64,000 bases of DNA, taken from Balanoglossus misakiensis (lineage: Eukaryota > Animalia > Hemichordata). The first letter of the stretch is position 1, and each line of letters begins with the position of its first letter. A program made the translations under genes and the position numbers. Below, one piece after another: positions 3,428-64,000 of this stretch. The notes beneath the pieces were generated by a model. That model was not told the DNA's origin, ran no database searches, and was given only the letters and a program-made list of their open reading frames with translations. The stretch lies in NCBI GenBank assembly GCA_040954595.2, contig JBECUI020000026.1, positions 310,001 to 374,000 of the forward strand. Direction: 5' to 3'.

Positions 3428-3475
3428 GGGAAACGGTCTGGTAATCAATGTTGTGACACTAGCATTAGGCCTTAA

Positions 3476-6629: not shown

Positions 6630-6810
6630 CTACAGGGCACATTTTTTTATCTCGTGCGCACGACTTACGTGTGCATGTGATATTTTCTCGTGAACACGAG
6701 TGCGCTCGCAATTTTCTCGTGCGCACGAGATATGCACGAGATAGCATGTTTCTCGTGCACACGAGAAAACATCTCGCTGGAACAAGATACTATCTCTTGC
6801 ACAAGAAATA
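6630..6810. repeat. Cluster of palindromic TCGTGCGCACGA-type short repeats (copy at 54197-54377)
   Basis: About 7 variants of ctcgtg(c/a)(g/a)cacgag spaced roughly 20-25 bp apart. Confidence 0.75.
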
Positions 6811-25391: not shown

Positions 25392-25630
25392 TTGTATTTT
25401 GCATTTTCTCACGGTGGCGACCATATTCCTTTGCGGCGAAGATTTATTATTTGTCTGGTTTAAACTTGCATATGCACTCATACTTAGGGTTCATAATACT
25501 TGTACATAGTTCAGTGCATACTTCTGTATGGGCTAAAGGTGGTGCAGTTTGAAAAAAGTGTGATAATTTCCCAAAAGTACCAGCTGATGCACCGATTTAT
25601 GTCTAATCTCTGTTTTGAATTTCTTGGCAG

Positions 25631-34600: not shown

Positions 34601-34739
34601 CTTCAGAGAAATCTATCACTACAATCCCATGTATAGTGGCGACAGTGGTAGTGCCAGTGGAAGTGAGGAATGGAGACCAAGGCCTCTTAAGAGTAGAAAT
34701 GAACTATTTCATGAGAGTCACGGAGACAGATACTTCTAA
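25631..34739 (+). CDS. 3' portion of an SVEP1/Uninflatable-like type-I membrane protein (pentraxin, EGF, HYR, sushi, furin site, ephrin-receptor-like Cys repeats, cbEGF, EGF, TM, NPxY tail)
   Basis: Phase-compatible exons: 25631-25831, 26235-26518, 27258-27398, 28103-28198, 29198-29398, 29802-30054, 30623-30771, 31366-31527, 31773-31934, 32179-32346, 32484-32645, 33214-33336, 33630-33758, 34026-34122, 34475-34739. Motifs: WHNVVMV / ILGQ / FHGDVTQMNVYDYVL (pentraxin); DKHAPEVIYCP...YVASDTAGNNAQCNF (HYR); repeated C-P-x-G-x-Y/F; TM VIIGGVAGGLAAVLVLGVIMLLM. All introns are GT-AG except the acceptor at 29196-29197. Confidence 0.92.
26860..26956. repeat. (CAT/CAC)n intronic microsatellite
   Basis: Direct read; produces the spurious poly-His ORF. 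Confidence 0.95.
28296..28485. mobile_element. Tc1/mariner-type MITE with TA TSD; a related element lies at 30346-30553
   Basis: TA-CTGTAAAACGG...CCGTTTTACAG-TA. Confidence 0.75.
30809..30893. mobile_element. 85-bp piggyBac-like MITE
   Basis: TTAA-CCCTTTCAC...GTGAAAGGA-TTAA. Confidence 0.75.
31110..31265 (+). repeat. Interspersed repeat shared by introns of both genes (also about 33413-33540 and 61935-62165)
   Basis: Shared core ttccattaattatgtttgata(g/c)aagacac...tacatgtggatatatagtgaatcaac. The 62 kb copy folds back on itself. Confidence 0.85.
32951..33133. mobile_element. Kolobok-like MITE (TTAA TSD, AG termini)
   Basis: TTAA-AGGTATACAGTCACCT...AGGTGACCGTATACCT-TTAA. Confidence 0.85.
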
Positions 34740-40611: not shown

Positions 40612-43074
40612 TAGTGGCCAGTGTCGTGCCCATTAATTTTGAGTGTTTGGTGGGGTCAACCTTTGCGTCAACATTGATTAACCAGGCCATGCAGAGCTAG
40701 TGGCCAGTGTCGTGCCCATTAATTTTGAGTGTTTGGTGGGGTCAACCTTTGCGTCAACATTGATTAACCAGGCCATGCAGAGCTAGTGGCCAGTGTCGTG
40801 CCCATTAATTTTGAGTGTTTGGTGGGGTCAACCTTTGCGTCAACATTGATTAACCATGCCATGCAGAGCTAGTAGCCAGTGTCGTGCCCATTAATTTTGA
40901 GTGTTTGGTGGGGTCAACCTTTGCGTCAACATTGATTAACCAGGCCATGCAGAGCTAGTGGCCAGTGTCGTGCCCATTAATTTTGAGTGTTTGGTGGGGT
41001 CAACCTTTGCGTCAACATTGATTAACCAGGCCAGAGCTTAGTGGCCAGTGTCGTGCCCATCAATTTTGAGTGTTTGGTGGGGTCAACCCTTGCGTCAACC
41101 TTGATTAGCCAGGCCAGAGCTTAGTGGCCAGTGTCGCGCCCATTAATTTTGAGTGTTTGGTGGGGTCAACCCTTGCGTCAACCTGGATTAGCCAGGCCAG
41201 AGCTAGTGGCCAGTGTCGTGCCCATCAATTTTGAGTGTTTGGTGGGGTCAACCCTTGCGTCAACATTGATTAGCCAGGCCAGAGCTAGTGGCCAGTGTCG
41301 TGCCCATCAATTTTGAGTGTTTGGTGGGGTCAACCCTTGCGTCAACCTTGATTAGCCAGGCCAGAGCTAGTGGCCAGTGTCGTGCCCATCAATTATGAGT
41401 GTTTGGTGGGGTCAACCCTTGCGTCAACCTTGATTAGCCAGGCCAGAGCTTAGTGGCCAGTGTCGTGCCCATCAATTTTGAGTGTTTGGTGGGGTCAACC
41501 CTTGCGTCAACATTGATTAGCCAGGCCAGAGCTAGTGGCCAGTGTCGTGCCCATCAATTATGAGTGTTTGGTGGGGTCAACCCTTGCGTCAACATTGATT
41601 AGCCAGGCCAGAGCTTAGTGGCCAGTGTTGCGCCCATTAATTTTGAGTGTTTGGTGGGGTCAACCCTTGCGTCAACCTTGATTAGCCAGGCCAGAGCTAG
41701 TGGCCAGTGTCGTGCCCATCAATTTTGAGTGTTTGGTGGGGTCAACCTTTGCGTCAACCTTGATTAGCCAGGCCAGAGCTAGTGGCCAGTGTCGTGCCCA
41801 TCAATTTTGAGTGTTTGGTGGGGTCAACCCTTGCATCAACATTGATTAGCCAGGCCAGAGCTAGTGGCCAGTGTCGCGCCCATTAAGTTTGAGTGTTTGG
41901 TGGGGTCAACCTTTGCGTCAACCTTGATTAGCCAGGCCATGCAGAGCTAGGGGCCAGTGGCGTGCCCATCAATTTTGAGTGTTTGGTGGGGTCAACCTTT
42001 GCGTCAACCTTGATTAGCCAGGCCATGCAGAGCTAGTGGCCAGTGTCGTGCCCATCAATTTTGAGTGTTTGGTGGGGTCAACCTTTGCGTCAACCTTGAT
42101 TAGCCAGGCCATGCAGAGCTAGTGGCCAGTGTCGTGCCCATCAATTTTGAGTGTTTGGTGGGGTCAACCTTTGCGTCAACCTTGATTAGCCAGGCCATGC
42201 AGAGCTAGTGGCCAGTGTCGTGCCCATCAATTTTGAGTGTTTGGTGGGGTCAACCTTTGCGTCAACCTTGATTAAACAGGCCATGCAGAGCTAGTGGTCA
42301 GTGTCGTGCCCATCAATTTTGAGTGTTTGGAGGGGTCAACCTTTGCGTCAACCTTGATTAACCAGGCCATGCAGAGCTAGTGGCCAGTGTCGTGCCCATC
42401 AATTTTGAGTGTTTGGTGGGGTCAACCTTTGCGTCAACATTGATTAACCAGGCCATGCAGAGCTAGTGGCCAGTGTCGTGCCCATCAATTTTGAGTGTTT
42501 GGTGGGGTCAACCTTTGCGTCAACATTGATTAACCAGGCCATGCAGAGCTACATTGTAGTGGCCAGTGTCGTGCCCATCAATTTTGAGTGTTTGGTGGGG
42601 TCAACCTTTGCGTCAACATTGATTAACCAGGCCATGCAGAGCTAGTGGCCAGTGTCGTGCCCATCAATTTTGAGTGTTTGGTGGGGTCAACCTTTGCGTC
42701 AACATTGATTAACCAGGCCATGCAGAGCTAGTGGCCAGTGTCGTGCCCATCAATTTTGAGTGTTTGGTGGGGTCAACCTTTGCGTCAACATTGATTAACC
42801 AGGCCATGCAGAGCTAGTGGCCAGTGTCGTGCCCATCAATTTTGAGTGTTTGGTGGGGTCAACCTTTGCGTCAACATTGATTAACCAGGCCATGCAGAGC
42901 TAGTGGCCAGTGTCGTGCCCATCAATTTTGAGTGTTTGGTGGGGTCAACCTTTGCGTCAACATTGATTAACCAGGCCATGCAGAGCTAGTGGCCAGTGTC
43001 GTGCCCATTAATTTTGAGTGTTTGGTACTGTCAACCTTTGCGTCAACATTGATTAACCAGGCCATGCAGAGCTA
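40612..43074. repeat. Tandem satellite, 82-86 bp unit, about 29 copies
   Basis: Unit tagtggccagtgtcgtgcccat(t/c)aattttgagtgtttggtggggtcaacc(t/c)ttgcgtcaac(a/c)ttgatta(a/g)ccaggcca(tgca)gagc. Confidence 0.97.
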
Positions 43075-43683: not shown

Positions 43684-44340
43684 ATTATGCAAATTAGAAC
43701 AGTTGTCTAATATTGCCATGTCAACCACGTTGAAATTGTTTTAGGTACCCATATTAATTAAAACCGTGAAAATGCGATATTACACACCATATAAGACAAA
43801 CCAGGGAAATTTACATGTTAGAGAAGTTTGTCGGCCATTTTGGATTATGCAAATTAGAACAGTTGTCTAATATTGCCATGTCAACCACGCTGAAATTGTT
43901 TTAGTTACCCATATTGATGAAAACCCTGCAAATGCGATTTTAGGCACCATATAAGACAAAACAGGGAAATTTACATTTAAGAAGAGTTTGGTGGCCATTT
44001 TGGATTATGCAAATTAGAACAGCTGTCTAATATTGCCATGTCAACGACGTTGAAATTGTTTTAGGTACCCATATTGATGAAAACCCTGCAAATGCGATAT
44101 TACACACTATTAAAGACAACCATAGTAAATTTACATGTTAGAGAAGTTTGTCGGCCATTCTAGATTATGCAAATTAGAACAGCTGTCTAACATTGCAATG
44201 TCAACCACGTTGAAATTGTTTTAGGTACCCATATTGATGAAAACCCTTCAAATGCGATACTACACACTATTTAAGACGACCATAGGAAATTTACATGTTA
44301 GAGGAGTTTGGCGGCCATTTTGGACTATGCAAATGAGAAG
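43684..44340. repeat. 160-bp tandem repeat, about 4 copies, at the outer end of the arm
   Basis: attatgcaaattagaacag recurs near 43684, 43844, 44004, 44164 and, degenerate, 44324. A partial inverted copy lies at 22185-22250. Confidence 0.9.
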
Positions 44341-47300
44341 AGTTGAACAAAAAATGCCATATTTGCAATGCTGTTGTCTTGTTTTGGGTGCCTATGTTAA
44401 GGCTTGAAAATGAAAGCTTATTCACCATTTTGGCACAAACAGTGGCGAGAAGGTGTTCCAATGTAACTTAGAAGAGTTGCCATATTTGCAATACAGTTAT
44501 ATTGTTTAAGGTATGAATGCAAATCCTGAATATTAGATTTATAACAATTTCATTGGAAAGAACATTTGTAGGTTCATCATTGACCCCATAGGACTGTCAA
44601 CTCGACTACAGACAGTCTCGATGAACACAAGACATGATCCCAATTTGCAAGCTGAGTTGAAACTGACTGCTGCAGTAACTTTAGCTCTGGGAATGTCTTG
44701 TGTGATTTAAAGCAATTGATGACCAAATTTAACACAGTTTCTCTGAGGTAACCACTTAGCTTTCGTGACTGGTTGTTTAAGAATCCAAAAAACATGAATT
44801 CTACCCAATGAATTCAACCCTTAGAATTTCACAACTGTAACAGAGTTTGCAGTCATGCACAAAAGTGTGTATCATACACATAAGAAATTTCTCACATGTA
44901 TTTTTATGATGGCAATGCATTTGACTGTAAACAAACATTGACATCAGTCAGTAGCGCTATTTTGTCAGTGAAATGGCTTCATCATCATCCCTCCAACCAA
45001 AGTTGAAACTGAGTTGCAAATATTGCACAGCTTGAAATCATAAAATGTTGCAAAATTGAACCAACAGTTCGGTCAATGATCAAGTTCTTACAGCTATTAT
45101 TAGAACCAGACAATCTCAGCGAACAAGAGACATGGGCCTTATTTGCAAGTCGAGTTAGAACTGCCTTTGCCTGCCCACGGACGCCCCAGTTTCAGCAAAA
45201 ATTATTGCATTAAAATGTGAGTATGGAGAACTATGCTCTGTGTTCCTTTTGTTAGCTTACATAGCTGTTGTCATTCTAGTTTTTCCTCTGTCCTGTGAAC
45301 AGAGTTTCAGTTGCGAAAACCGACAGTTCTTAAAGTACAAAAGTACACCTAAATTGCCTCGGTGATGAGCATGCAGAATTTATCTGATGCTTTTTACTGG
45401 CAGAAGGACCCCACCAGTTGCAGATTGTCAATTCCATGGCACAAGGGAATTTACGCTTTGCGTTCAAATATAAATAATTAACACCTGTTTAATTTTTCTA
45501 TATGTTCTTTAGTGATGATTCAAAAGTATTATGACTGCTAGTGTGATTAATATTCTATTTTCAAAATGTGTTTTTCTTAATGATTATGAATACATCAAAA
45601 TTTATGCTTTAAAATTAAATCATTTTACCTGAAATATTGCAAATATTTGGAGGGTTGCATTTAATTTGAAGTTCTCGATCAAAGTTTTAGGCATAAAAAA
45701 GGTGCTACACCCCCGAAAAATTGGTAGCTATGAATTCAATTCAAAGAGTGTTGTAATGTCTGTTTTGCAACAGGGTGCCAGTTCAACAAAGCGCATGAGG
45801 ATAGTAAATCACCTTTGTGAATTTTGTGCACCACAGTAAGAATTCCCTAGAAACTGCAAACTAAATTGCAAAGCAATCAGACAAAAATGGCAGTAATTGC
45901 CAAAAAAAAAAAAAAAAAAATATTGTCACTTCCATCACTGGGTTTGTTAAATTGTCATAAAATCACACCTAAAAACATGCAAACCAAATTTTAAAAAAAA
46001 TGTGGGTAGAGGTTTCTGAGTATATGACGACCAAAATCACCCCAAAATATACTTCAAAAATGAAAAATAAAATCTGTATAAAGTCTCAATAACATAAATA
46101 CACACCAATTTCTAAAGCAATCTGACCAGTACCTTCTTGAGTTTCTGAGTTTAGAACAATTTCACATTGGTCCCAATGGTATATTGACATATACAAAATT
46201 GGACCTAAAGAGTAAAACACATTTCAAAGATTTTACAATTAAAGCCTCACAAGCTGCCAAATTTTACACATCTTTTTCCACAATAACATTTTTCAAATCA
46301 TCCACCTATCCTTTAAAATCAGCACCATTGAGACATATTACTTGAATTTGCATGGGGTTTGTCATCTCTCTGCGATGTGTACCCTCCATATGGAGGCTGA
46401 TTAAAACAGGTGTGGCGCTTGTTTAATATCTGACTTCTTTAAATTGCAACATACAGGCACATTCATTAGTCAATAAAATGTTCATGTATACCTATCAGTC
46501 AGTTTGTTTAGATGAACAAATCTAAGATGGAAAGTAATATCATGAAAATACTGAAAGATTGGAAACTCTGAGTTTGAGTCTAAGGATAACAAGGGAACCT
46601 CTCTACTATTTGACGCACCAAAGCTATGAAAAACTTCCTTCTTTCCCTCAAATATTTTTTATGAATATGTTCTACTCCGTGATTAAAATTTCCCTTTTAC
46701 CAAATGTACATATGTAAGAGACGTGATTTTTTCAGCAAAATTTCAATTGGCCTACGGTGACTTTTTACCTACTTACCCATATTGGGTAGCATGAAACACA
46801 GAATGGCATACCAGTGGGTTAGAGATACAGCGTTTTATATTAACATGAATTAACATGAAACTAAAAATTTGATGGTTTACTTAGGACTGCCTTGATCCAT
46901 GGTAACCTCATTAAATATGTACATATCTAATTCTAGGCTATCCAGTTGCGGTAGAAACCTGGACATGGACAACTTTGGGGTCAAAATCTTTTGACAAAAT
47001 GTTGGGTGATCTTGGGTAAACTTTGACCTACATTCCTATATCTTGGCATCCGGCACAGATACATCCCTGACACTTGGAGTGATGGAACTGCATAATGGAG
47101 TATTATGTCTCAGCTAGTCACAGTGCTTTTGCTGTGTTTTATGTCTTTTATTCAGCCAAATTAGATGTTTTTCATTACACATTGGCTGTGTTTGCCAGTA
47201 CTTTTTAGCTGGTCACACTGCCTTAACACAATGTATTCTCAAAATACTCTGCAATCTTTATGAAGCATATACAGCAGACAAAGTTGTGGTAAGACTAAAC

Positions 47301-50300
47301 TTGCCCTTCTTTGTGATTAAAGCATGACCGGCCTGTCTTAGGTGGCCCCTACCTAGGGGCTTTACCCGTCATTGGCTCACAGTCTGAGAAATCAGCTCTG
47401 CAGGGAAGTTAACGATGTAACCCACCATTAAAGCTTGGATTTCCGCTTTTTGTATTTGATACCTGGCTGAGGCCTTCTTAGGATCTACCCAACGCTGAGT
47501 AGGCTATCCCGTCATTGGCACACAGTCTCAGGGAGGGAGTCAAAAGTTCAGTATACCATCAAAGCCTTTATATTGTCCATTCTTTTTAAGAGAAGGCTGG
47601 CTGCTGTAGAAAAATGTTGATCTCAAATTTATCATGTCCAAAAAGCCAGACTTCCAGCCCTATTGGTTAGGCTGGCATTAGGTAAGTACATAATTAATGA
47701 GGCAAGACATAATACTCAATCAAATAGTTCCATCACTCCAAGTGTCAAGGTTGTATCTGCTCCGGATGCTAAAATATAGGAATGTAGGTCAAAGTTTACC
47801 CAAGATCACACAAATGTTTGTCAAAAGATTTTGACCCCGAAGTTGTCCATGTCCAGGTTTCTACTTCAGCTGAATAGCCTAGAATTAGATATGCACATAT
47901 TTAACGAGGTTACCATTGCTCAGGGGGGTCTTAAATTAACCATCAAATTTTAGTTTCATATTAATGCATATTAATATAAAACACTGTATCTCTAACCCTA
48001 CAGGTAAGCCTAGAATTAGGTACATGTACATGCGTAAGTTTTTGACAAGACAGTTAAGCTGTAATATATGTACATGAACCTTGACAATTGACTTAAAATA
48101 ACATAAAGGCAGAACTGATACTGATTGGAGATAGATATTACTAATGACAGTGATGTTAATTACACCAGGAATGTTTGTCTTAGTATACGGTAGCTAACCG
48201 ACTGCTTGAGGTTAAGTAATGAAAGTGCCCACTTGCGATTCACCTTCAAATAGCTACTTAGTCTTTGGTACATGTACATTGTTTTTCCAATGATTAGACA
48301 AAGGATATACATACGTGTAATTAAGGTTGGGTAGCATTTTCAATGTAATAAGCCCTGCCTTCACTATAATCTTACACCAAATCAACACTGTTCAGTAATG
48401 TGATAGGCTTCAAAGCGACGCTAGTTACATCATAATTCCCAGCAAGGGGTATTAGTTTATTGGGCAAGTGGCATGAGTGAGGCCAGACATTAGTTTTGGA
48501 AGCAAAGCGGACAGAACACTGCCGGGCATAGACTAGGTAGTTCTGAATAGTCATGTTTCATAAGTCAGGTCCATGACATATGTACCGACATCTGTGATTG
48601 GTCCATCTGGTAATCTTAGGTCCACTTGAGGCACGGTGATTGGAGGGACCTTATGTGTTAGGTCTTATTATTATGTATTATTCACTAGACCTTGTAGGTT
48701 AGGTCTTATTACTATGTATTATTCACTTTACAGCTCCCTGATTGGTTAATGTGTAGGTCTCCAATTTTCACTGCCTCGTTATGCAAAGTCTTTTGTCCTT
48801 CTGAATACAGTTGTCGTATTCTGTCTGGCATGCTGCCTGCGCGTTGTCGAAGCTCGATCCCAGTGTATAAAGAAAGGCACTCATATAATGATTGGATTTA
48901 ACCTTTCCTTCACTATTCATGGCATTTTTTTGTGATACTGTGAACTAGATACTCGAAATAAAAATTGCCAGGAGAATTTTTTTATTTTATTTCCAGTGGC
49001 GGTTTGTTGAAATGGGCTAGTGTTTTGTTACGTAATGCTTTTCAGCGCATCACTTCGTGTAACACCTGGCTGAATACGAAGTGTGTGCTATTCATTCGAG
49101 CAAACCAAAAATATCTTACAATAGAACTGTTTAGAATAGCATTGCATTTCTTTAATTGGGATACCTCATTAGTTGCTTTACAGGTATGATTACTTTTATT
49201 GTACTTCTTTCACGAAGCTGCACCGTCATAGTTCCATTTTTATGAAAACAATATACGAATGTATAAACGGACAACGTACTCCTTTTCACAACATCTACGT
49301 CAAAACAAATTTACTTTAAAATAGTAAAACAACAATAATAATATTGATGATGAGAAGTAGGAGGGTGATTTAAGAAAATATACAACTGTTAGCAAAAATG
49401 CTTAGATGTGTTAATCAGATTTTCAAAGTCCATCTAAAAATCATTTAATCTTTCCAGGGTGCGGTTTATGTTGGAGATAGTATCAGTCAGGCTATTTCTC
49501 AGAAAATTAATGAATGATCTGCGGACATCCCGAATAATGTGTTACCACAACGCTAGCCAGGAAGCACATGGGACATTTCACAATGAGGCAGTGAACACTG
49601 GGAGACCAGACTGACACGTTAACCAATCAGGGAGCTGTATGGTGAATAAATACATATTAATATGACCTAACCTACAAGGTCCTGTATTATGAGGCAGTGA
49701 ACACATGGGGGACCAGACTGACACGTTAACCAATCAGGGAGCTGTAAAGCGAAAAATGCATAGTAATAAGACCTAACCTACAAGGTCTAGTGAATAATAC
49801 ATAATAATAAGACCTAACCTACAAGGTCCCTCCAATCAGCGTGCCGCAAGTGGACCTAAGAGAAGCGGATAAACCAATCAAAACATGCAATACATGTGTA
49901 TAGGACGTGTAATGTAGGTCATTTTGAAACAGGACTAATGTGACCATGGACGTTACCACATTAGACTCTGTATTGTAAGTTTCTGAAGAATCGCAAAAAA
50001 TCATCAACAGTCTACATGTACTTCAACCTTGTGAGAAGTACTGTATAACACACAGGATATACTAGTCACTGTTGGTCAGGTTATTACACACTGTGGTCCC
50101 ATCTGGGGATTACACAAAATTAGGTATGTCTGTGTTCATGGGAAAAATCATGTGACATTGGCAAGCAGATATGACCTTCTGTAAGAACATTTCAAAGGAA
50201 CCAGACAAGTATTTTAGGGAAAACAACATTCAACAATGACAAAAACTGCCTCAAACCACATCTATCCAACTATCAACAAATTGTATAATATCTACTTCAA

Positions 50301-53145
50301 TCACCACGCCTACCAAAGTTGAAAGCAATCTGACTAGTAGTTTCAAAGAATACAAATTGCAAAAATTGCCCCAAGACCACAATATGTAAATTTCACCAAA
50401 ATGATATACAACATTACTTGGGTTACCTCTTGGAACAAGCATACCAAAATTTAAAAGCAATCTAAGGAGTTTCTCAGAAAATGAATTTTGACCAAAAATG
50501 ACAGATTACAAATTCTGCGACAATTTAAACAAAACCAACTATGATCACCTACCGGAAGTGTCATACTAAATTCTAAAGAAATCAGCCAATCTCTTTAAGA
50601 GGAAAAGATTTTTTTTCAAATGGTAAAACAAGACAAAATAATTGCATAAAAAATAGACAATTCACGATATAAACTCAAAGTATATCAGGTATGATGACAT
50701 TACCTACATGCATACAAATGTTCAAAGCAGTCTAACCAGTTGTTGAGTTTTGATCAATTCCACATATTTCACAGGTTATTTGCGTATTTTTGCAATGACA
50801 ACTTCATTTAAGCAAAATCCCATCTTCACACCAAAATAAAAAAAGCGTGGTTTCATGTTTTGGATCAGGGCAGACATACATCCATATATACATGTAACAT
50901 GCAGACACACATGTACACACACACACAAACACATGCATACATGGCTGCATACATACATACATACATACATACATACATACATACATACATACATAGGGAA
51001 ACGGTCTGGTAATCAATGTTGTGACACTAGCATTAGGCCTTAAACCCCGGTGCGGAAAGTACTGGGGTTCGGATTAACGTGTGTTTGTACAGTTGTTTAT
51101 TTGGGAGTGGTCGTCGTGCATAATAACTGTGTAATTGATCTCATGTACATAGAAAATAATTGAACACTTTACACCTCTATGCGATTGACAGCTGTTTGAA
51201 TGGCGTGGTTATTGTTTCCCAGGGATGCTTCTGAAAAGCACTGAAACCAGATTTCTCCCAAAATCATCGTTGTTTCAAAAGCTCGTGTACTTTTTCATCG
51301 ATAACTTTATGTTGTGTGTGTTTATAAAGCCAACCACTGTCGTTGTGTGGTGTAATTCTTTATGCTTGGATCTGTTTGGGCCGATTTTCATAGAGCCAAG
51401 ATCGTTAGAGCCAAGATCGTTGGTGTTGTCTGTTGTCAGTCAAACGGCATTAAGATTCGCCACTGATTTGGGGGGTCTTTTATACCACGCATCGGGGTTT
51501 AATGTTTACGATATCAGGACAATTTATATCATATGAAGTTTTATGTATTCATAATTATTCAGAGAAGCAAATTTTTAAAAATGTGAAATTGTTATCAATC
51601 GGATGTGCACTGACAGCATGCTTATATGGAATACAGGTACTCTAACACAATCAGTCATAACACTTTTGAATCATCAATAAATAACATATAGAATAATTTT
51701 ACAGGATTTAATTATTTATATTTGAACGCAAAGCGTAAATTCCCTTGTGCCATGGAATTCACAATCTGCAACTGGTGGGGTCCTTCTGCCAGTAAGAAGC
51801 ATCAGATAAATTCTGCATGCTCATCACCGAGGCAATTTAGGTGTACTTTTGTACTTTGAGAACTGTCGGTTTTCGCAACTGAAACTCTGCTCACAGGACG
51901 GAGGAAAAACTAGAATGACAACAGCTATGTAAGCTCACAAAAGAAACACAGAGCATAGTTCTCCATACTCATATTTTAATGCAATAATTTTTGCTGAAAT
52001 TGGGGCGTCCGTGGGCAGGCAAAGGCAGTTCTAACTCAACTTGCAAATCAGGCCCATGTCTCTTGTTCCCTGAGACTGTCTGGTTCTAATAATAGCTGTA
52101 AGAACATAATCGTTGACCAAAGGGTTGGTTCAATTTTGCAACATTTTATGATTTCAAGCTGTGCAATATTTGCAACTCTGTTTCAACTTTGGTTGGAGGG
52201 ATGATGATGAAGCCATTTCACTGACAAAATAGCACTACTAACTGACATCCATATTTGTTTACAGTCAAATGCATTGCCATCAGAAAAATGCATACGAAAA
52301 AATTCTTATGTGAATAATACACACTTTCTTGCACAACTGCAAACTCTGTCACATTTGTGAAATTTTAAGGAAATTCATTCATTGGGTAGCTTTATGAATT
52401 CTTAAACAAACTTAGTCATGAAACCTAAATGGTTACCTTACACATCTGGCGGCTCGACTTCTGTGATATGATAGTCTTCAATTAATGTGTATGTGATTCC
52501 ATACAAATCCATATGATTACCTGAACGTACAAAATAAATAAAAAATAAAAAATAAATTAAAAATAAATAAGTATCTCATACATATGCATAAGTGCTTGTG
52601 ATAAATATATCCTGTATTTAAATAAACCTGTCATTTATTGACCTCGTTTTCCTATTAACCCAAAGGACTAGATTGCACTGTAATATTATTACAGCTTCAT
52701 TTCAATGCAACAGGTACACTACATCATATTGGAGCAAATATGCCAGCTCAACATTGATATAAAGAGTGTCAAAATATTGGTGGCTACAAAAGCTTGTGTC
52801 CCTTCAATCCATCCTCGCACTCAGGTGAAAACGAACGTCATTAGTTTTTGGGAAAAAACCTCTGAAATCAATTTCGGTGAGGCCAAATGTGTTCCAAAGG
52901 CAAACCGTTTCTGGTAAACAAATCAATGGCAAATAATTACTTCGGCGACATACCAATCAGTCAACATGGCTGCCTAATCGTTGGATAGCCCGGTTTCATC
53001 TCGCGATCATTCTGTCTTCCGATATGGCGTTGCATGGTTAAATTCGTCTCTTCTTTGCCGACATAGTCAGGCGACAGCGGTCCAGAAGCATAGGCAGCGA
53101 CGCCATCTTGTTTACAATGTGAAGTATCGACTGCGCATGCTCAAT
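43684..53145 (+). repeat. More complete copy of the left arm of the giant inverted repeat
   Basis: Inverted homology to 11914-22250; includes the direct duplicate of 1-5577. Confidence 0.9.
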
Positions 53146-54615
53146 AATTTTCCGCGTTTTTTTTTTTGCCAACGGCGCGCGCGCGGTGTCTGGTATAGAG
53201 AAAATAACAAGCAAGTGCGCGATTATTCATTTGTAAAAAATCAGTTATACATTTGTCATCAACGTTTGAAAACTTTCAATGATCTTACCTCGGTAAGCAT
53301 TTCAAATAGGTACATTTTTATTTAGAACCATCGTATGTGGAAAATAATAAAACACAGAGTGGGGATTGGCCCTATGTTTGACTTGATCATACCCAGCTCG
53401 GTTTGCGTTTTGTCATTGACGAGGGTGTCAGACTTTTGCTGAGAGAGTGAGTTTCTATAGCGTAAACGTTTATCGACTGGACTTTCTGTGCGCCAACAAT
53501 TACATTATTTGTGGCCGGGGAACACGTGCAACTTTTGATGACTGTTTTTCTAGCGCCGTGTTTTTATCTTACGACCTAGAATACCTGCTTTCGTCACCAT
53601 GGTCTGCTCTGCACGTACTATGCTTTCCAGTTTATGTAGCTTGAAGTTGTACCACATTTTGGTTTCCGAGCTGTAGCGAACATAAAACCGAAACTAATAG
53701 CTACGTGTTGACCGCAGCGACTGCGTGTTTTTTTGTTGTATTCCCAACCTACAGTTTATTCTCATGCAGCTCAGACTGAGGTCGCTTCTAAGAGAAAAAA
53801 CAACAACATATTTTGGCTGCTGCCAGACCAGGAATGGAAAATCTTGAGTGGCGCTGGGCTGCATTTCTCTGTAGGACTGTAGTTGTATTGTGCAAGGGTT
53901 CGCCAGCATCGCCTTCAGACTTGTTGTCATAGTCACTGGTGGCGGTTTGTCCTGCACTACTCGTCGTTCTATTTGATGCGGTGGTATTATTCCCAGATGT
54001 CTGTGCCGAGGATCCTGCCCGTTTTCCGATTCTCTTCGTTTTGTCGGCCATTTGCTTCACTTTTTCTGTCATTGTTGCGACGTCAGTCTCTGTTGTTGTT
54101 CGAAGGAGGCGAAAGTCCATTCACCATTAATAGCCGAATTTCCAAGATCGTCCGTTAATTACAATGCGACGTCACGCTACCATGTCCTAAGAAAGACTAC
54201 AGGGCACATTTTTTTATCTCGTGCGCACGACTTACGTGTGCATGTGATATTTTCTCGTGAACACGAGTGCGCTCGCAATTTTCTCGTGCGCACGAGATAT
54301 GCACGAGATAGCATGTTTCTCGTGCACACGAGAAAACATCTCGCTGGAACAAGATACTATCTCTTGCACAAGAAATAGAATAACTGGCAGCCACTATGAT
54401 GTCTGCCACAGGCAAATTTAAATATTCCACTCTGGATCTTCTTTCAGCCCTTCGGAAAACATGAGCATTTATGAAATCCGGCTCTCAATTTTTCGAGAAG
54501 TTCCAGCAGTTGTGGTGTCGCCAAAAACGAATGTATGCCATTCCTGGCGGAAAAAAATATGCAAGAGACGCTTGCAATACACTGCCATCTACCTGACCGC
54601 CCTACATGCCTTAAT
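47573..54615 (+). repeat. Copy 2 of the near-identical direct duplication
   Basis: Matches 1-7048. Confidence 0.97.
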
Positions 54616-55015
54616 AACACCGTGAGATATATTTTCTAAATTTGAGATTGAGTGAAAATTGAATATTTTCCAAATTAAACTGTATAAAACAGTGTAATGA
54701 TATGGAAATGGAAGAATTCAACAAAGAAATAATTTAATTTCAAATATGCCTACATACTTTGCCATTTTTTTCCAGTAGAAATAATTTTTTTCCTAATTTT
54801 CAATTAAATGACTGCCACATGATCTTAGTTTTTCCATGAAAAAATATAACAATTATTTCGCTTGTCAGTGAAAATATATTTCTAGTGGTTGGAAAAAAAT
54901 AGAATAAGTCAAATCTCTGAAAATCTGTCTTTATTCAAGAACAATAAAAACAATTAGTGGGGGAAACACCAAAAAATGAACACACACACTAAAATTGACA
55001 TTTTCTATGTATTAT

Positions 55016-56598
55016 TTAGGAGGGGATAGAATTTGTTGCCGCCATTCTTGGGAGGGGAGAAATGAGGGCATATAATTTCGTGCCGTCATTTTTGGGAGGG
55101 GAGAAATGGGGGCATAGAATTTGGTGCCGCCATTCTTGCGAGGGGAGAAATGGTGGCATAGAATTTGGTGCCGCCATTCTTGGGAGGGGAGAAATGAGGG
55201 CATGGAATTTGGTGCCGCCATTCTTGGGAGGGGAGAAATGAGGGCATGGAATTTGGTGTTGTCATTTTTGAGATGGGAGAAATGGGGGCATAGAATTTGG
55301 TGCCGCCATTCTTGGGAGGGGAGAAATGAGGGCATGGAATTTGGTGCCGCCATTCTTGGGAGGGGAGAAATGGGGGCATGGAATTTGGTGCCGCCCTTCT
55401 TGGGAGGGGAGAAATGGGGGCATAGAATTTGTTGCCGCCATTCTTGGGAGGGGAGAAATGAGGGCATAGAATTTGGTGCCGCCATTCTTGGGAGGGGAGA
55501 AATGAGGGCATGGAATTTGTTGCCGCCATTCTTGGGAGGGGAGAAATGGGGGCATGGAATTTTGTGCCGCCATTCTTGGGAGGGGAGAAATGAGGGCATA
55601 GAATTTGGTACCGCCATTCTTGGGAGGGGAGAAATGAGGGCATGGAATTTGTTGCCGCCATTCTTGGGAGGGGAGAAATGGGGGCATGGAATTTTGTGCC
55701 GCCATTCTTGGGAGGGGAGAAATGAGGGCATAGAATTTGGTACCGCCATTCTTGGGAGGGGAGAAATGAGGGCATGGAATTTGGTGCCGCCATTCTTGGG
55801 AGGGGAGAAATGGGGGCATGGAATTTGGTGCCGCCATTCTTGGGAGGGGAGAAATGGGGGCATAGAATTTGTTGCCGCCATTCTTGGGAGGGGAGAAATG
55901 AGGGCATAGAATTTGGTGCCGCCATTCTTGGGAGGGGAGAAATGAGGGCATGGAATTTGTTGCCGCCATTCTTGGGAGGGGAGAAATGAGGGCATAGAAT
56001 TTGGTACCGCCATTCTTGGGAGGGGAGAAATGGGGGCATAGAATTTGTTGCCGCCATTCTTGGGAGGGGAGAAATGAGGGCATAGAATTTGGTGCCGCCA
56101 TTCTTGGGAGGGGAGAAATGAGGGCATGGAATTTGTTGCCGCCATTCTTGGGAGGGAATTTTGTGCCGCCATTCTTGGGAGGGGAGAAATGAGGGCATAG
56201 AATTTGGTACCGCCATTCTTGGGAGGGGAGAAATGAGGGCATGGAATTTGGTGCCGCCATTCTTGGGAGGGGAGAAATGGGGGCATGGAATTTGGTGCCG
56301 CCATTCTTGGGAGGGGAGAAATGGGGGCATAGAATTTGTTGCCGCCATTCTTGGGAGGGGAGAAATGAGGGCATAGAATTTGGTGTCGCCATTCTTGGGA
56401 GGGGAGAAATGAGGGCATGGAATTTGTTGCCGCCATTCTTGGGAGGGGAGAAATGGGGGCATAGAATTTGTTGGGGAGGGGAGAAATGAGGGCATAGAAT
56501 TTGTTGGGGAGGGGAGAAATGAGGGCATGGAATTTGGTGCCGCCATTCTTGGGAGGGGAGAATTGAGGGCATAGAATTTGGTGCCGTCATTTTTGGCA
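55016..56598. repeat. G-rich minisatellite, 44-bp unit, about 36 copies
   Basis: Unit gaatttggtgccgccattcttgggaggggagaaatg(a/g)gggcat(g/a), with a few internally deleted units near 56155 and 56470-56510. Confidence 0.97.
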
Positions 56599-57517
56599 AT
56601 TACTTTGAAGAAATGCTACTCTTCAAAGCTCCATTTGCTATAACTTTGTGCAATGTTTAAAGCATTTTTATGGATCTTGTGCAAGATTATTTTTCAAATT
56701 CATGAAACAGGATAAAATGCCCAGTGTCCAGCTTATTAACACAACCTATATGTATATAGTAAGCGTTGTTATTGTGTAAAATTTGAATTCAACATTACCA
56801 ATGGCTGTTGCACCGAAACAAGTTATGTTGACAAGTGGAATCCTGGGTATATAAGCATGCTGTTTTGAGTAGAGCAAGAAACTGCATTACTGGTAGGTAA
56901 ACACAACAAAAGTCGAAATTTTAAAATCTGAACACTCAATTTTTTGTTTAAAATCCCCTTTTTAATTTAACAAGTGAACAATTAAATTAGAGACAGCTTG
57001 CAGATAATATAAATGCTGTGTTAGTAAATATTAAAACAACTTTAAAACTACAGTATAAATTATAATAGGACCCAAAAATGGAAAAAAATGCTCAAAAATT
57101 TTAACAAAACTATGGTAACTCAGATCATGAAGAATGTCTTATAAGACAAAATAAATATATTGCAAATAGAAAAAACTATATATCAGGACTATATCAATCT
57201 GACCAGTGTTTGTGGAGTTTCCGAGTTTTGACCAATTACACATTTTCTCAGCTTATTTTTGGAAATGACAACTTCATTTGAACAAACTCCCATCTACAGC
57301 CTGGCCTATATCTGTACACTAAATATCAAGGTGATATGCTAAACAATTTCCATTTGTTTGATGTGGACATCCATCCATCTATCCATACATAACAGATCCA
57401 ATAATGTCCCGTTGTATAATACACATATACCAAATGGGACCTGAAATTAATACATACATATCACTGTGTAGAGTTTACACACCCCCATAATGCGTTTTCC
57501 GTGACCCCACTCTATAA

Positions 57518-60500
57518 TCAGTCTGAGTCATCTACTTGCGATGCCCCGCTCCATCCAAATCTCTTTGTAGCTGCTGAGTAGATGTTGCCGAGCTGGTCTG
57601 CGTCGGTCTCCAAACAGATGCATGGTCTTCCTAACTGTAAAGCAGCAGTAAAGGCACTACCTGCAAACATAGTTGAGAAAAAAAAGTGAAAAAGTTATCA
57701 ATCAATCATCATCACACAAGTTTTATCAGAGTGACTTTATTTCAAATTTTAACTTATTTTTCATTTTCATTGCTTTGTTACAGTACACTCTGACCACACA
57801 TTTGTTTGCTTTGAAATAAATACTTCAGTTTCTTTAACTGAGAGGATACCTGACATTCAGACATTGTTCTAATAAGTGTTTAATTAAATTTACTGTATTA
57901 TAGGGATAATAAATAGCTTCAAAATCCTAATTATGAACAATAAAAATGCATGATTTTTTGTTTGTTTTGACCTTCCTAAGACACCAAAGACATACATAAC
58001 AAAACCATAACAATAACAATTTAAGCATGATATCTTTCATTGCAATCACTTTTGAATTTCTATACAAGTACACTTTTACAGTAATGGTGCATCAGAAAAT
58101 ATTTTACAAAAACAACATTTATAAAAAATACCTTGATTTCTTGTTACGTCAAGCATCCATCTTCTTTCGGCACAGAAAACTTTGATAAGTTCTGACAGAA
58201 AATCCTCCATCTTGTCGGCCTTTTCAATAACCCAGTGGTTATGATGGGGGCCATTGCCAAAATTTGTCTGCAATCTGTTAAACACCCCTGTCTCAGACCA
58301 GTAACCAACAACAATGCCTTTCACAGAATTCCACAAGGTCCTCGAAGCTATAAGAAGTGAAAATATGGAAGAAACACATTAGTCAAACACTGGCTTCAAT
58401 ATTTGTCAATCATTACAGCAGGAACTTTGTCATATGATGATAACTTTAATACAAGTTCATTTTTGGACTGCCACTGCATGAAAACACATTGAAATTTACA
58501 ACAAATATTATAGCACTTACAAGATTTGTTGTACTGCAGGAAGTAGAATCCTTCTTCAACTTTGCAGCAGGTCTTCCTCATTATTTTCTTTACTTTTTCG
58601 ATATCTGCTACTTCGCATAGTGCAATAACATTATAATAGGGTATGCTGCAGTCCAGATTAATTGATTTAATAGTTTTTAGCTCTTCTGTGAAACTGTTTT
58701 CACACCAGTCCTGAAAGAGATAATAGAACATAGGTTGTAACTGATAATGAGACAGACACATTACACTGAATTATGAAACAATATGGAGTCCAAGACAGCA
58801 ACTGCCTATATTGAAAATGTTGGTCAGTAAAATTGAAAGTATTGCTTTAATTGTGGATTTTGACTTCTCATGTGTATATGTAATAAAATATAGGGGTTAT
58901 TGCAGTTGTTTTCAAAATACAAGGCCGCAAATATAGCCGATAATTGAAAAAAACTGAGCTATATACTGTCAAATTTTATGAAAATGATTAAGTAGAAGTT
59001 TTCTAGCTATTCTCAATGTAATTCTATGGAAAAAGATGAATGCGTACACATTTGCACAGATTTCCCGTTTATGTTTTGCACATACATCCTTAATGACATA
59101 TTTGAGAATTTAAAGTAAACTTTCCTTAATAGAGAGTTCTTCTTAATACTACAATAGACAGGTAATATATGATTCAAGTTGTGTTACACAAATTGCTATA
59201 CGGTATATTTAAACTCACCTCAGGAATGCTGGTCATCGTCAGTTCTGCACCATTAAATTCTGGACAACTTTCCCGTATTTTATCCAATGATAATGATGCT
59301 GTCTCCACATCTAGCACACAACCTCTGATGTTGTTTTCTGCTGTAAAAATGTTGTGGGCCGTAGATTCTTCAGGGACACCACCGGAGTCCAACATGTCTC
59401 GTAACTTTTTACACTCCTGCTGGAGTTCCGGTGGTGTTCCTCTGCTGAACTTCAGGCCCACAAATCTTGACAGGTATGCCCTATCTGCATAGGCTGGCAA
59501 CTTCTCCTCCAAGACGCTCCATGGCATTTGGAGTTCCTTGATGAACGCCTCCTGAACCACTTTCATCTTGCGAACGTCTTTGGCTTCTCTGTTCATTTGC
59601 TGTAAATTAGTTTTTCCATCAACAACATCTTCCAGAAATTCACAAATGGTGTTCTCGTTTAAATGCACCAGGTAACTAAAAAGGTATACTGGTATGTCCG
59701 GTTTCACCATCAGATTTTTCTTCGTAACTTTCTGACCAGCCAGTACTCCCGTTTCATAGCTCTCGAAAATTTGATCCAGTTTCACTGTAACAGTCTCAGG
59801 CTGTTTCGCCAGATTTAAAATTGTTTCCATATCTGTATCGTTCTGCAATAAATCAATAGAAGTATTATTACAAGGACAGTACACTTAACTCTGCCATATA
59901 ACAGCAAGCCTTGTTACCTACATCCAAAATTGACAAGATACAACAAGAGAGACAGTTTGGACAATGGCAACATTCATGTGTCTACACAAAGCCTTACTAA
60001 AACATTAGTTGGATCCCCCAACCACATTTAGGTAATTCTACATTTTAACAGAGAGCTTGTCTTTGGTAATATGCATGACAGAGGCCAGATAAACAATAAA
60101 TTTCAGTGGATACTGGTTGACACAGGAGAAGGACATTTGGTAAGGTGAACCATTTTCCCATAATATTTTTTTTTGTATTTTGGACTAAGGTGTCTTAGAT
60201 CTAAATCCACTTACTATGGATTTTAATTTAGTGCAACCAATCTTGGAGATAAGAACAAAATCTGTCCATGTCATTTGCTACATTGTAATATATTGGATTG
60301 CACCCCACTAATTAAACTATGATTTTTCCCAATTAAACTTACTTGTTGTAAGATGTTTTTACAGGATCTCCTCCATTCCTCGGAGGCAGATTTAACAGAT
60401 GTCAGTCTGTCCCGACATATGTGGACCTGAAATAGGAATATGAAATAAAATTAAAATAATACAAAATCTAATTCTTGCCTTAATTGCCATGTACAATTTC

Positions 60501-63500
60501 TTTGCTCTTAATTTCTATGTAAACCGGCAAAGATTATTCTTGACACAAGACATCTTTCAAAATGAAATTTTGAAAATTATGATTAAAATGGGTCCGTATT
60601 GAAAATGAAAAGATGAATAATTTTTGAAATACGTTTTTGATACTGTGTCTTAAATACAATGGAAAACCCATGAATTGACATTTCAACCCATTAATTGCTC
60701 ACTTAACTTAAATTTAAAAATAGACCAGTGTGATGTATTAGTATTTAACTCGTTATTTCCTGAAAAATCCATGGCATAAACAACTGTTGCAAATTGTGTT
60801 CACTGTTTAATTAAGTCAATCAGATCAAGCCATTTTGGACTGTAACTTACCTTTTCTTTGGTACTGAGCTTGTGGACCAAATGTTGCATATCATTGTGGC
60901 GATTTGCAAGCCACATGGACTGTTCTTCACTCAGTGAACAATATATCTTGCATTGTCTTGACTTAAATAATTGCCTATCTTTATACTTCTCAGCAAGTTG
61001 CTTCGTTGCAGTGAAATTGTGTTGACCGCCTAGGATGGTGTACTTGTATCCATTAACCTACATGACAATTGACACAAGAAATGAAATTGAGTTTAACTAG
61101 CACACGTGAGAAATCACTAATGTCGTTTGAAAATGTTTTGTTGAACTCTAATTCTGAAACTGAAAGCCATGCAATCAAGACAATTGTGGGGGTTAGCTTA
61201 GTGATATTTCATACTCACGTTATTCTTGTTGAAGTCAGTTTTCTTAATGTCCACCATAACAACATATGGGCTGTAAGACTCATCAGTAAATTTCTCCATA
61301 CTCTCAACCAGGGTCTTCACGAAAAAGTCGTCCACTTTTCTTACTTGCTTTCCCAAGTTCAGATTACAGGTGTGAATACTGAATACACCTAAAATAAATG
61401 TAAATGTAAATGTAATTAGCTTGAGTAGTTCACATCATTGAATTCTCTTGGACTTAGCCAGCTTAATACATTAACAACCAAAATTCGTACTGACTAAAAG
61501 TTTAGGCCAAATAGTCATCCTCCCCATGTACCCAAACCAAGCTAGTCTACCTCTCATGTGACATGTTCACTGAATGCATTATGCTTCATTGGTTATTTTG
61601 AGCTGTACAATCAGTTTTAGAGAAAAAAGACAAATGTTTTCTCAAATGTGCACATTTCATTACAATTCAAACACATCTTTTTAATGTTACCACAAGGAAC
61701 CTAAACACAAAATGCCAAAGCAATCATAAGCAGTTTCAAAACAAACTGATTGTTGATTAAAACAGCAGACAAATATTCATGTACAAACATAAAATGGGAG
61801 CTAAACAAAGATGTTTAGTTGCACCCACTGCTGGAAGAGTGAATGGAGCTGAAAGTACATGTATGTCTTGTAGTATGAAAGGACTGGATCATGACCCAGA
61901 TCCTCTCATGTTTAAAGGGACAAAATCTCCTTCTCTCATTGTCCATCTTCCATTAATTATGTTTGATACAAGACACATGACTGTTTATGTTATCTACATG
62001 TGGATATATAGTGAATCAACGTTCGACCACACACAACTTCCATCTCGTTTGTGGGATATGAGTGTAAAAATCTCGCCAAAATGAATAAATGGTAGAGACC
62101 GATTATTCATTTTGGCGAGTTTTTCACTCTCTTGTGTACAAGTGGTACAGAAATTGTGTGTGATCGATGGTGAGAGAGAGACTTTGTCACTTTAACATAC
62201 ATGACATTGCTTCTCAGGCTACATGTATACAAATACAGCATCCTTACCAAACAAAACAAAGTAATTCATCTTAATATCTCACCTGGTATTGCGTGATCAT
62301 TAACAATATTAGTCATTGGATCTTCTGTTGAATTCACCGAGTCTATATGACTTCTTCTTTTTTTCCTTGTCAAATCTGGAATTACTTCACCTGAAGAAGG
62401 CCTTTTTTTTCGCGATTTACCAGCCGGGAAACTGAAATTGAATTGGATGAAATAACATGAAGATCTTCTTGAAAGGACAGTGATTCAATCTCTGGTAATC
62501 AGAGTTGTGTTTGCCACCTTGGCAAATGCTGTAAACCATACACCTTAACAAAAACTGTTTCCCAAGGGTCTATGTCTCAGCCACAGCCAACTTGCTATCA
62601 AATATTGGCCCAGCATACAATGCCCAAAGTGGGCCTGATCTAGTTTTCTGTAATATTAACATACCAGTATATCATTGAATGAACTGTAATTCTACCAGAA
62701 TCAAAATTTAGTGCTGTAGCAAGTTTGCAATGTGCACTCAGATAAACTAGTCAGCTCAGAGACAGTCATATAATCATTTGATTTCTGAATGGGTTGGAAC
62801 AAATTTTTGCAAGACAGACTGGGCGTATTTGCACAATTTTCATGGGTTATAACTGTTAACAGATGACATATTTTAAACTTTGCTCCTGATTGTTTGTCAA
62901 CTGACCCAAATTACAAACAATAGCTATGTGACACCGATCGGAAAAGGTGGGCATTTTTCCCATAATTCAAATTACAGTAAACGCCATATTGGAAATTCTG
63001 CCAACTTTCCCTCGATTTTGCAAAAAATTGCGCGACTTATACATGGCGAAAATGTTTTTTTTTTTCTGAAAGAGTGACCTCAAAGCTACAACTTACAAAA
63101 ATGTAGAAATCAGCTGGACCGGATTTTCCCTTTAATGAATTGCAACTTACCGAGCATTAGAAGAAAGCTCTGGAGATACTCTGTCACCAGATGTATTCAT
63201 GGCTGAACTGGAATCACTTGAAGGCCTTTTTTTCTGTGATTTACCACCAGGGCACCTGAAAGTGAATTGGATAAAATAACATGTAAGACTTGAAAGGAAT
63301 GGGATTAAATCGTTGGTACTCAGAGCTGGAACTGTTTGCCACAAACCATACACCCTTGGCAAAACTGTTTCTCCTGAGTAAGCACATATCATGTGTCTTT
63401 TTACAGATAATGGTCATCTCTGATATAATGTTGATTATATGTGCGAGTTAACTTTGCCTATATGTAATGATGCTATGCAATCAGCAATGGTGCTTTTGCA

Positions 63501-64000
63501 TAAGATTTACAAAATTTAAGAGAGTGGATGATTTAGTAGAATTTTATTTGATTGCACATGTATTCTAACTTAGATTGTGGTTTATACAAGCTAAGTGTAC
63601 TTACGGAGAATTATCTTCTTGACAAGACGAACTTGAAGATTCTGTATCACTTGATGTATTCATGGCTGAACTGGAACAAGATGCAGATTCTATACCAACA
63701 GACTGCATGCTTATATCTGATTCATCACTTGATTCTCCTCGGGATACACTGTTTTTGTCAACAAGTTCATTAAACTTTGCTACAAAATCGACAGCCAGTT
63801 TGATGTCACGGAAGTTGCGGCAAAAGTCATTCTGATGCCATTCAAATTCTCGGCGATAGAATGTGTGTTTATAACCTTCAAAGATAAGCTGAAAAACAAA
63901 AAAAATGTTAATGAATCATGGACATTCATCTGATTTTTTGTGAGTTTACCTGTTGAGATCGCCAATTGAATACATCGAGTTTATCTCCATGGGTAAACAA
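57518..64000 (-). CDS. Spliced gene, 5' end outside window: Ser-rich/NLS linker, ParB/Srx-like domain, helical region, degenerate beta-class N6A/N4C DNA methyltransferase-like domain
   Basis: Exons, all GT-AG and phase-consistent, 2223 nt without an internal stop: 64000-63950, 63888-63605, 63255-63151, 62431-62283, 61388-61219, 61057-60851, 60426-60343, 59842-59219, 58710-58521, 58347-58132, 57660-57518 (TGA). The gene model is well supported; domain calls are by-eye motif matches. Confidence 0.88.

Follow-up and report, generated by a model that had tools for sequence, protein, structure and literature searches.

A ParB–methyltransferase fusion gene of the hemichordate Balanoglossus misakiensis with an intact reading frame and altered catalytic motifs

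The locus and the predicted protein

The 64,000-nucleotide stretch of Balanoglossus misakiensis DNA considered here (GenBank assembly GCA_040954595.2, contig JBECUI020000026.1, positions 310,001 to 374,000; hereafter the window) carries a spliced minus-strand gene whose product is predicted to join a ParB-like fold to the fold of beta-class DNA amino-methyltransferases (MTases). Rebuilt from 11 exons lying between 64000 and 57518, the gene reads through 740 open codons to a stop codon, with GT–AG borders in 10 of 10 introns; the two alternative frames of the joined exons contain 36 and 62 stops. This agrees with a preliminary description made from the sequence alone, which had reported 11 open exons with canonical splice sites. 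The exon count is a minimum because the gene is 5′-incomplete in the window, its start lying beyond 64000. The range given in that description, 57518–59260, holds the MTase part from motif IV onward, while the ParB box (61030–61007) falls outside it. The gene and the features around it are as follows.

64000–63950 (partial), 63888–63605, 63255–63151, 62431–62283, 61388–61219, 61057–60851, minus strand: exons 1 to 6
60426–60343, 59842–59219, 58710–58521, 58347–58132, 57660–57518, minus strand: exons 7 to 11
63605–64000, minus strand: end of an N-terminal beta-rich, weakly PH-like domain and start of an acidic Ser-rich linker (exon 1, partial, and exon 2)
62283–63255, minus strand: Ser-rich linker with basic KKRP/RKKRRS clusters (exons 3 and 4)
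60851–61388, minus strand: ParB/sulfiredoxin-like fold (exons 5 and 6), from the model of paralogue P0004 and conservation
59357–60426, minus strand: all-helical region after the ParB fold, predicted to bind DNA and helix-turn-helix-like (exon 7 and the 5′ three quarters of exon 8)
57518–59356, minus strand: beta-class amino-methyltransferase fold (end of exon 8, exons 9 to 11)
55020–56596, no strand assigned: 44-bp tandem array of about 36 copies, about 0.9 kb past the stop codon, from a repeat scan
54586–54640, no strand assigned: junction at 54615 between a 7,048-bp copy of window positions 1–7048 (99.9% identical) and the gene-bearing sequence

From its N-terminus, the protein thus comprises a beta-rich domain, an acidic Ser-rich linker with basic clusters, the ParB fold, a helical region and the MTase fold. 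In the region of exons 1 and 2, 35 of 62 residues are identical to the related proteins P0004/P0109. Residues 39–161 of the P0004 model align with four PH-type folds at Z scores of only 4.2–4.5, which is a lead, and an atlas search with the N-terminal domain gave no match. The basic clusters of the linker, KKRP and RKKRRS, look like nuclear localisation signals. Exons 3 and 4 with their upstream introns (62283–63342) form an internal duplication, in which 62441–62517 matches 63265–63342 at 78% DNA identity; it has made the Ser-rich linker longer and given it a second KKRPSS motif.

The family and its methyltransferase motifs

A search with exon 8 retrieved one longer protein, P0001 of Ptychodera flava (76% identity), one of a cluster of three nearly identical records from as many scaffolds. 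P0001 in turn was searched exhaustively and returned 106 representatives at E values up to 0.001, and two profile searches added 15 and 5 matches, partly overlapping. Judging by 21 named proteins and the named search matches, the family is present in hemichordates (P. flava, Saccoglossus), echinoderms (Holothuria, Apostichopus, Patiria), the nemertean Lineus, cnidarians (Exaiptasia, Actinia), the sponge Halichondria and the alga Chara braunii. Most other matches are unnamed exon-sized fragments, often ending at one intron position after motif IV. One P. flava protein annotated as “type II methyltransferase M.HinfI-like” (P0138, XP_070534821.1) is a C-terminal family fragment without motif IV.

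A tree of 78 rows places the window protein beside P0001–P0003 (support 0.996), with P0004/P0109 joining next (1.0), and shows lineage-specific expansions instead of one orthologue per species. Relatives are present in multiple copies, with 13 P. flava records on at least 12 contigs, seven Holothuria gene models, and four Halichondria and four Lineus records, each of the last two sets falling within a single 90% cluster; many of these copies are truncated. Dispersed near-identical copies within a genome are seen among the relatives, in the P. flava, Halichondria and Lineus clusters. The Chara protein CBR_g41648 (P0048) holds two tandem ParB–helical–MTase units and is colinear with the animal family over 515 columns (probability 99.9, E 2.3e-35).

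No exon of the gene scores alone on Pfam (nine exon stretches gave no match to N6_N4_Mtase, PF01555, or to ParB), and the domain calls therefore rest on relatives. Paralogue P0001 gave no relevant Pfam match either, and NCBIfam and PHROGs yielded none for P0003 or P0109. Both folds come from models of the P. flava paralogues P0003 and P0004, not of the window protein itself. The P0003 model (445 residues, mean predicted local distance difference test score, pLDDT, 89.5; P0003 is 76% identical to the window protein) folds like a beta-class amino-MTase, with the permuted Rossmann fold in which motif IV lies ahead of motif I. It matches CcrM in Foldseek at E 1.4e-8 and aligns with it at Z 20.0 and a root-mean-square deviation (rmsd) of 2.7 over 196 residues; further structures at Z 17–20 are M1.HpyAVI, M.MboIIA, M.BceJIV, M.PvuII, M.RsrI and N4CMT. 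A family profile matches solved beta-class MTases at E 1e-7, and PF01555 is found in 10 of the 19 scanned relatives, nine of them above the cut-off (P0008, P0009, P0111, P0021, P0048, P0011, P0020, P0036 and P0037) and one below it (P0005). An atlas search with the MTase part returned PF01555-bearing clusters at 0.88–0.91, which again is only a lead.

Within this fold, the window protein has the altered motifs that were first noticed in the preliminary description. Motif IV, split by the exon 8/9 junction, reads AELTMTSIPE-DW (59248–58705, with SIPE-DW at 59230–58705) in place of the catalytic [DNS]PP[YFW], and motif I, split by the exon 10/11 junction, reads DVTRNQ-GS (58150–57656). The site for S-adenosylmethionine (SAM) lacks both the QKP of motif X, which reads DKM, and the DxFxGxG of motif I; the acidic residue of motif II is retained (CLETD, 57616–57602). 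Two loops are also reduced, the one after motif IV by about 9–12 residues relative to Chara and the one before motif X by about 14–16 residues relative to P0127 of Saccoglossus, P0137 and Chara. Judged by these motifs, the window copy is in all probability dead as a methyltransferase.

The string S-I-P-Y at residue 580 (58647–58636) was considered as a relocated catalytic motif and rejected. It lies just before the next strand (at residue 280 of the P0003 model, the strand spanning 283–291) and is absent from P0109, P0127 and P0008; Rossmann topology presumably puts it on the face opposite the active site. The chance that the protein is still an active amino-methyltransferase, working through S-I-P-E or a relocated motif, is next to negligible: the Ser of motif IV does resemble the start of the SPPY typical of N4-methylcytosine (4mC) enzymes, and S-I-P-Y and the motif II residue are at hand, but the motif I glycines and QKP are gone and S-I-P-Y is neither shared by the three relatives compared nor, judging by the topology, in the active site. 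In the bdelloid enzyme N4CMT, changing SPPY to APPA abolished activity (PMC8885841), and the Tyr of SPPY has been modelled as stacking on the target base (PMC10406627).

A census of motifs across the family suggests in which order the losses occurred. Its rows are redundant (cluster members and isoforms), and most unnamed ones are only presumed to be animal. Three proteins treated as unrelated (P0051, P0068 and P0113) and six small Halichondria fragments (P0131–P0136) were left out, and a further one so treated, P0125, was subtracted from the motif I count. At the fourth position of motif IV both Chara units have an aromatic residue, which is present in 0 of the 75 non-Chara rows; about five fragment rows are out of register here and by eye also have no aromatic. 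The position is preceded by [DNS]-x-P in 32 of the 75 rows, typically as D-x-P-[KQEN]-x-W with a shortened following loop, and by Asp at position 1 in 28. The Trp two places past motif IV aligns with the start of the next helix and not with the Tyr. An intact motif I, accompanied by QKP or a close variant, occurs in 16 of 33 non-Chara rows, the named ones all being echinoderm or hemichordate proteins. It is lost in the window copy, in P0001/P0003 and in the Halichondria, Exaiptasia, Actinia and Lineus members. P. flava has both types, P0137, P0011, P0020 and P0036 with motif I and P0001 and P0003 without it. Both Chara units contain DxPY and QKP, and the second also DGFSGSG.

Thus, the loss of base stacking extends to the whole animal family sampled, while SAM binding has disappeared several times within it. 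The suggestion that the motifs had been rewired in this particular gene does not hold for motif IV, and only the loss of the SAM site (QKP, DxxxGxG) is subclade-specific. Of the DPPY/SPPY and FxGxG motifs that the preliminary description proposed to look for in homologues, DxPY is kept by Chara only and motif I also by about half of the other rows. As for the active paralogues envisaged there, no animal paralogue with the full catalytic tetrad is present among the rows examined; paralogues with the SAM site only are common. Chara CBR_g41648, with its intact-looking DFPY/DLPY, is a candidate active amino-methyltransferase in a streptophyte alga.

The same census bears on the idea that the protein forms a pair of the METTL3–METTL14 kind, itself inactive, with a paralogue that has remained active. 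In this scenario, family members with D-x-P-x-x-W, QKP and DACSGTG would write N6-methyladenine (6mA) or 4mC by means of a variant motif IV, and dead copies would dimerise with them to target or damp their activity. The co-occurrence of SAM-site-intact and dead types in P. flava, the frequency of Asp and [DNS]-x-P at motif IV, a SAM site kept across echinoderms and hemichordates, the dimeric state of beta-class MTases (PMC10406627) and the METTL14 precedent all favour it. We nevertheless regard it as distinctly unlikely, given the complete absence of the motif IV aromatic, the inactivity of the APPA mutant of N4CMT (PMC8885841) and a downstream Trp that does not take the place of the Tyr. A homodimer prediction for the MTase-like domain of P0003, run without an alignment, scored 0.01 against a mark of 0.32, which speaks neither for nor against a dimer.

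The ParB pocket and selection on the gene

The P0004 model (623 residues, pLDDT 71 overall and about 90 across the ParB and helical parts; P0004 is 74% identical to the window protein in the ParB domain) has the ParB/sulfiredoxin fold. It matches Myxococcus xanthus ParB at E 9e-7 and PadC at Z 9.2 (rmsd 3.1, 96 residues aligned), as well as Noc, KorB, sulfiredoxin and phage ParB proteins. In the window protein the ParB box reads GGQHNFTA (61030–61007), followed by HN at 60910–60890. The Arg of G-x-H-R is indeed replaced, as noted earlier, and the GxxR of Box II becomes GGQHN, if GGxH is taken to be in register with Box II. The replacement is again a property of the family and not of this gene: an Arg after GGxH is confined to 2 of 27 rows, which are isoforms of one Actinia gene, and both Chara units are also without it.

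Residues R213, G263, G264, H266, A270, H307 and N308 are invariant in both Chara units and in all 15–18 core rows spanning these positions. Because R, GGxH and HN are retained so widely, the site looks derived rather than dead, that is, like a family-specific pocket and not a product of decay. Removal of the Box II Arg abolished nucleoside triphosphate (NTP) binding in other ParB-fold proteins (bioRxiv 2025.10.10.680097), and since that Arg is absent here, classical gating by cytidine triphosphate (CTP) is doubtful. The region that follows the ParB fold is helical in both the P0003 and P0004 models and aligns with pNOB8 ParB, KorB and Spo0J at Z 5.7–8.7, a range common for helical bundles.

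Conservation is highest in the ParB domain, where 123 of 137 residues are identical to P0007 and 101 of 137 to P0109. Identity to these two relatives falls from 90% and 74% in ParB to 76% and 60% in the helical region, and the MTase parts are 57–75% identical to P0003 and 39–48% to P0109. Selection was approached by a protein-level proxy, distinct from a codon-based ratio of nonsynonymous to synonymous substitutions, in which residue changes relative to P0003 were compared with neutral simulation to equal divergence. Of the 435 aligned residues, 121 differ, with a mean BLOSUM62 score of +0.46 versus −0.49 ± 0.15 under neutrality (maximum −0.02), and only 1 of 2000 neutral simulations of the whole comparison was stop-free. 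For the MTase-like domain alone, the score is +0.56 versus −0.56 ± 0.19, with 0 of 1000 simulations as high and 7 of 1000 stop-free. The simulations and the identity gradient together indicate that the dead MTase domain is constrained, though less than ParB, and the gene as a whole is very likely under purifying selection. This supports the earlier proposals that the protein is a probable pseudo-enzyme in an intact frame and that selection may be maintaining it. The proxy averages both branches leading to P0003 and does not separate host-level from element-level selection; the target of selection may have been a mobile element instead of the host.

That the gene is a pseudogene in decay, with a frame left open by chance, is highly improbable. 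In favour of decay, fragments and truncated models are numerous among the relatives and the MTase domain evolves faster than ParB; averaging over both branches also leaves room for a very recent death. Against it stand the rarity of stop-free simulations, none of which was as conservative, the same result for the MTase domain taken alone, and ten canonical splice pairs. Nor does the MTase fold seem suited to a reader of modified bases (6mA or 4mC), a role raised in the preliminary description. The fold is kept under selection and fused to a predicted DNA-binding fold, but the stacking aromatic and two recognition loops, the one after motif IV and the one before motif X, have all gone. This role is disfavoured, and we rate it as very unlikely.

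Transposon ancestry and possible roles

Fusions of this kind are known from mobile elements and phages. A ParB plus N4/N6-MTase protein is encoded by an accessory gene of the 21.5-kb Ectocarpus transposon Sola1-1_Ec32, and similar genes occur in green and red algal elements (PMC12477816, which cites Iyer, Abhiman and Aravind 2011 for similar algal proteins). Red-algal Plavaka elements carry PF01555 and ParB accessory genes (PAG2/PAG3) beside tandem arrays (bioRxiv 2025.02.11.637652), and the ParB–N6_N4-MTase domain pair is common in phages (bioRxiv 2025.10.10.680097). By description, the window gene resembles Sola1-1_Ec32 in uniting both prokaryote-type domains in one eukaryotic protein and in the multi-copy dispersal of its family, and it resembles Plavaka PAG3 in the tandem array nearby. 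It differs from both in its animal host, its lost MTase motifs, its extra N-terminal beta domain and the absence of a visible transposase beside this copy.

With Chara CBR_g41648 it shares colinear homology and the R, GGxH, HN signature of ParB without the Box II Arg, whereas Chara keeps DFPY/DLPY, WCKPN, QKP and DGFSGSG and the animal rows are without the aromatic and the loop after it. CcrM, M1.HpyAVI, M.MboIIA, M.RsrI, bdelloid N4CMT and Marchantia DN4MT1 have the predicted fold and motif order in common with it (Z 17–20), at 11–14% identity in structural alignments with beta-class MTases; they differ in possessing DPPY/SPPY, QKP and FxGxG, and the fusion partner in the present protein is ParB instead of a chromodomain. 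DN4MT1 has TSPPY, and the text consulted does not mention ParB (bioRxiv 2021.02.12.428880). N4CMT is stated in PMC8885841 to have no eukaryotic homologues, for which reason we treat the present family as a separate lineage. The CTP-dependent DNA clamps ParB, Noc and KorB likewise have a ParB fold followed by a helical region, and the phage fusions share the domain pair; here, by contrast, the Box II Arg is replaced, a long helical region lies between the domains, and the gene is eukaryotic and spliced. Finally, METTL14 and the MTase domains of DIRS1 elements, which are inactive transposon cargo (PMC4738411), also keep an amino-MTase fold without catalytic residues; they belong to other MTase clades and have no ParB domain, and a catalytic partner is only hypothetical in the present case.

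On the whole of the evidence we favour, with about even confidence, an intact and selected protein that is a non-enzymatic, transposon-derived DNA-binding factor, with the MTase fold kept as a structural module. The family would descend from the ParB–amino-MTase fusions of phages and algal DNA transposons and would have spread in animals as transposon cargo. Methyl transfer may have disappeared stepwise: base stacking would have gone first, in all of the animal family sampled, followed by SAM binding in this hemichordate subclade and in others. The ParB and helical part would be the working end, predicted to bind DNA, probably the repeats of the element itself, by way of a derived R/GGxH/HN pocket with no necessary use of CTP. 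The dead MTase fold could then be retained as a structural module, plausibly as the dimerisation end needed by ParB-type clamps, a role made plausible by the fact that beta-class MTases act as dimers (PMC10406627).

Several observations weigh against this interpretation. The missing Box II Arg weakens the case for a CTP-gated clamp, and the folds are known from paralogue models, with DNA binding and dimerisation being predictions. Within the 64-kb window, which ends short of the 5′ flank of the gene, no transposase, terminal inverted repeat or target-site duplication could be tied to this copy, and the 2.9 kb downstream of the gene hold repeats only. Scans for related loci found none in viral contigs (queries P0008, P0048 and alignment A6) or in metagenome contigs (A6 and P0128). 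Transposon carriage thus rests on copy patterns and precedent. In run X1, possibly of the source sample, one contig of 4,698 letters covers 57278–61975 with 0 differences, and no second contig of that run matched four exon-bearing bins at 80% likeness. The introns contain widespread repeats, and this copy looks long-resident.

Some of this evidence would also suit a domesticated, single-copy chromatin protein of the host, under host-level selection and with no tie to any element. Ten introns with their repeats, an intact frame, the purifying signal, the single clean contig and the lack of a transposase in the window all speak for domestication. However, among the closest P. flava relatives three nearly identical records occupy three scaffolds and a sister pair occupies two others, the tree has lineage-specific expansions, and the selection proxy is blind to the level at which selection acts. 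We consider domestication unlikely, if the least so of the rival explanations. Contamination is argued against by the introns and 3′ flank of the gene, which share repeat families with the rest of the window.

The neighbourhood of the gene has features of its own. The 44-bp array is a widespread repeat, as many other contigs of the runs match it at 80% likeness. The idea of position 54616 as a terminus of an element containing the gene found no support, since the window has no inverted end to match it and nothing suggests that 54614–55051 is present in many copies. Window positions 1–7048 equal 47573–54615 at 99.9%. Word depth in clean contigs reaches about 2,900–6,700 in the 7–27 kb region in run X1 and, for most, 1,700–3,200 in run X2, versus about 68–87 (X1) and 176–400 (X2) over the gene, although contig depth does not measure copy number. 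The change in depth at 54615 suggests that a 47,567-bp unit is amplified head-to-tail, as an array or a circle, and that the gene lies in the unique DNA adjoining its exit; alternatively, the gene segment may be present in few cells. The ends of the unit (7022–7075 and 54589–54615) resemble imperfect inverted termini, the start reading TAAGGTAGAAGGTCGGGCGGTAGG and the end CTACCTGACCGCCCTACATGCCTTA, joined head-to-tail at 7048, and no transposase was found in the unit.

Among 113 frames of at least 68 residues from 7049–54615 (an 86-bp array excluded), Pfam identified only pentraxin, LamG and ephrin-receptor-like repeats and no transposase. Exons of a pentraxin/LamG gene with four ephrin-receptor-like cysteine repeats lie at 25497–34739 on the plus strand, inside the possibly amplified unit; we take this gene to be SVEP1/polydom-like. 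Tandem arrays of 86/82 bp (29 copies) and 160 bp (4 copies) occupy 40612–43074 and 43684–44345. A cluster of short palindromes of the CTCGTG-x-CACGAG type at 54218–54335 (and 6651–6768) stands just upstream of a minus-strand frame that starts with MADKTKRIGKR (53788–54120) and has no Pfam match.

As to novelty, phages and algal transposons already provide examples of the domain pair, and METTL14 and DIRS1 of dead amino-MTase domains. No account of an animal ParB–MTase family was found in a literature search conducted mostly without subscription papers; Iyer, Abhiman and Aravind 2011 might cover it. The group-1 section of PMC4738411 lists no such animal clade. A bolder proposal is that an overlooked, horizontally acquired ParB–amino-MTase system resides on giant DNA transposons from sponges to hemichordates. 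A ParB-type clamp with a new R/GGxH/HN nucleotide pocket would load on element repeats, members with D-x-P-x-x-W and a SAM site would write 6mA or 4mC with a non-canonical motif IV, and dead copies would be partners or dominant dampers. Such a system seems improbable to us; if real, it would add to bdelloid N4CMT a second source of bacterial-type DNA amino-methylation in animals and would include the first animal ParB clamp.

The existence of animal writers of DNA 6mA and 4mC is a long-standing dispute, in which bdelloid N4CMT is the only beta-class PF01555 enzyme that we found reported in animals. The present family is a second and much wider animal lineage of the beta-class fold, and every member examined is without the catalytic aromatic, so that automatic annotations such as “DNA methylase N-4/N-6 domain-containing” or “M.HinfI-like” are not evidence of 6mA or 4mC writers. 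The family forms a graded series, from intact (Chara) through SAM site only (Saccoglossus, sea cucumbers) to fully dead (the window gene), all with one invariant ParB pocket. With this series, one can address the function of a ParB fold in the nucleus of an animal and the question of whether transposons bind their own repeats by means of ParB.

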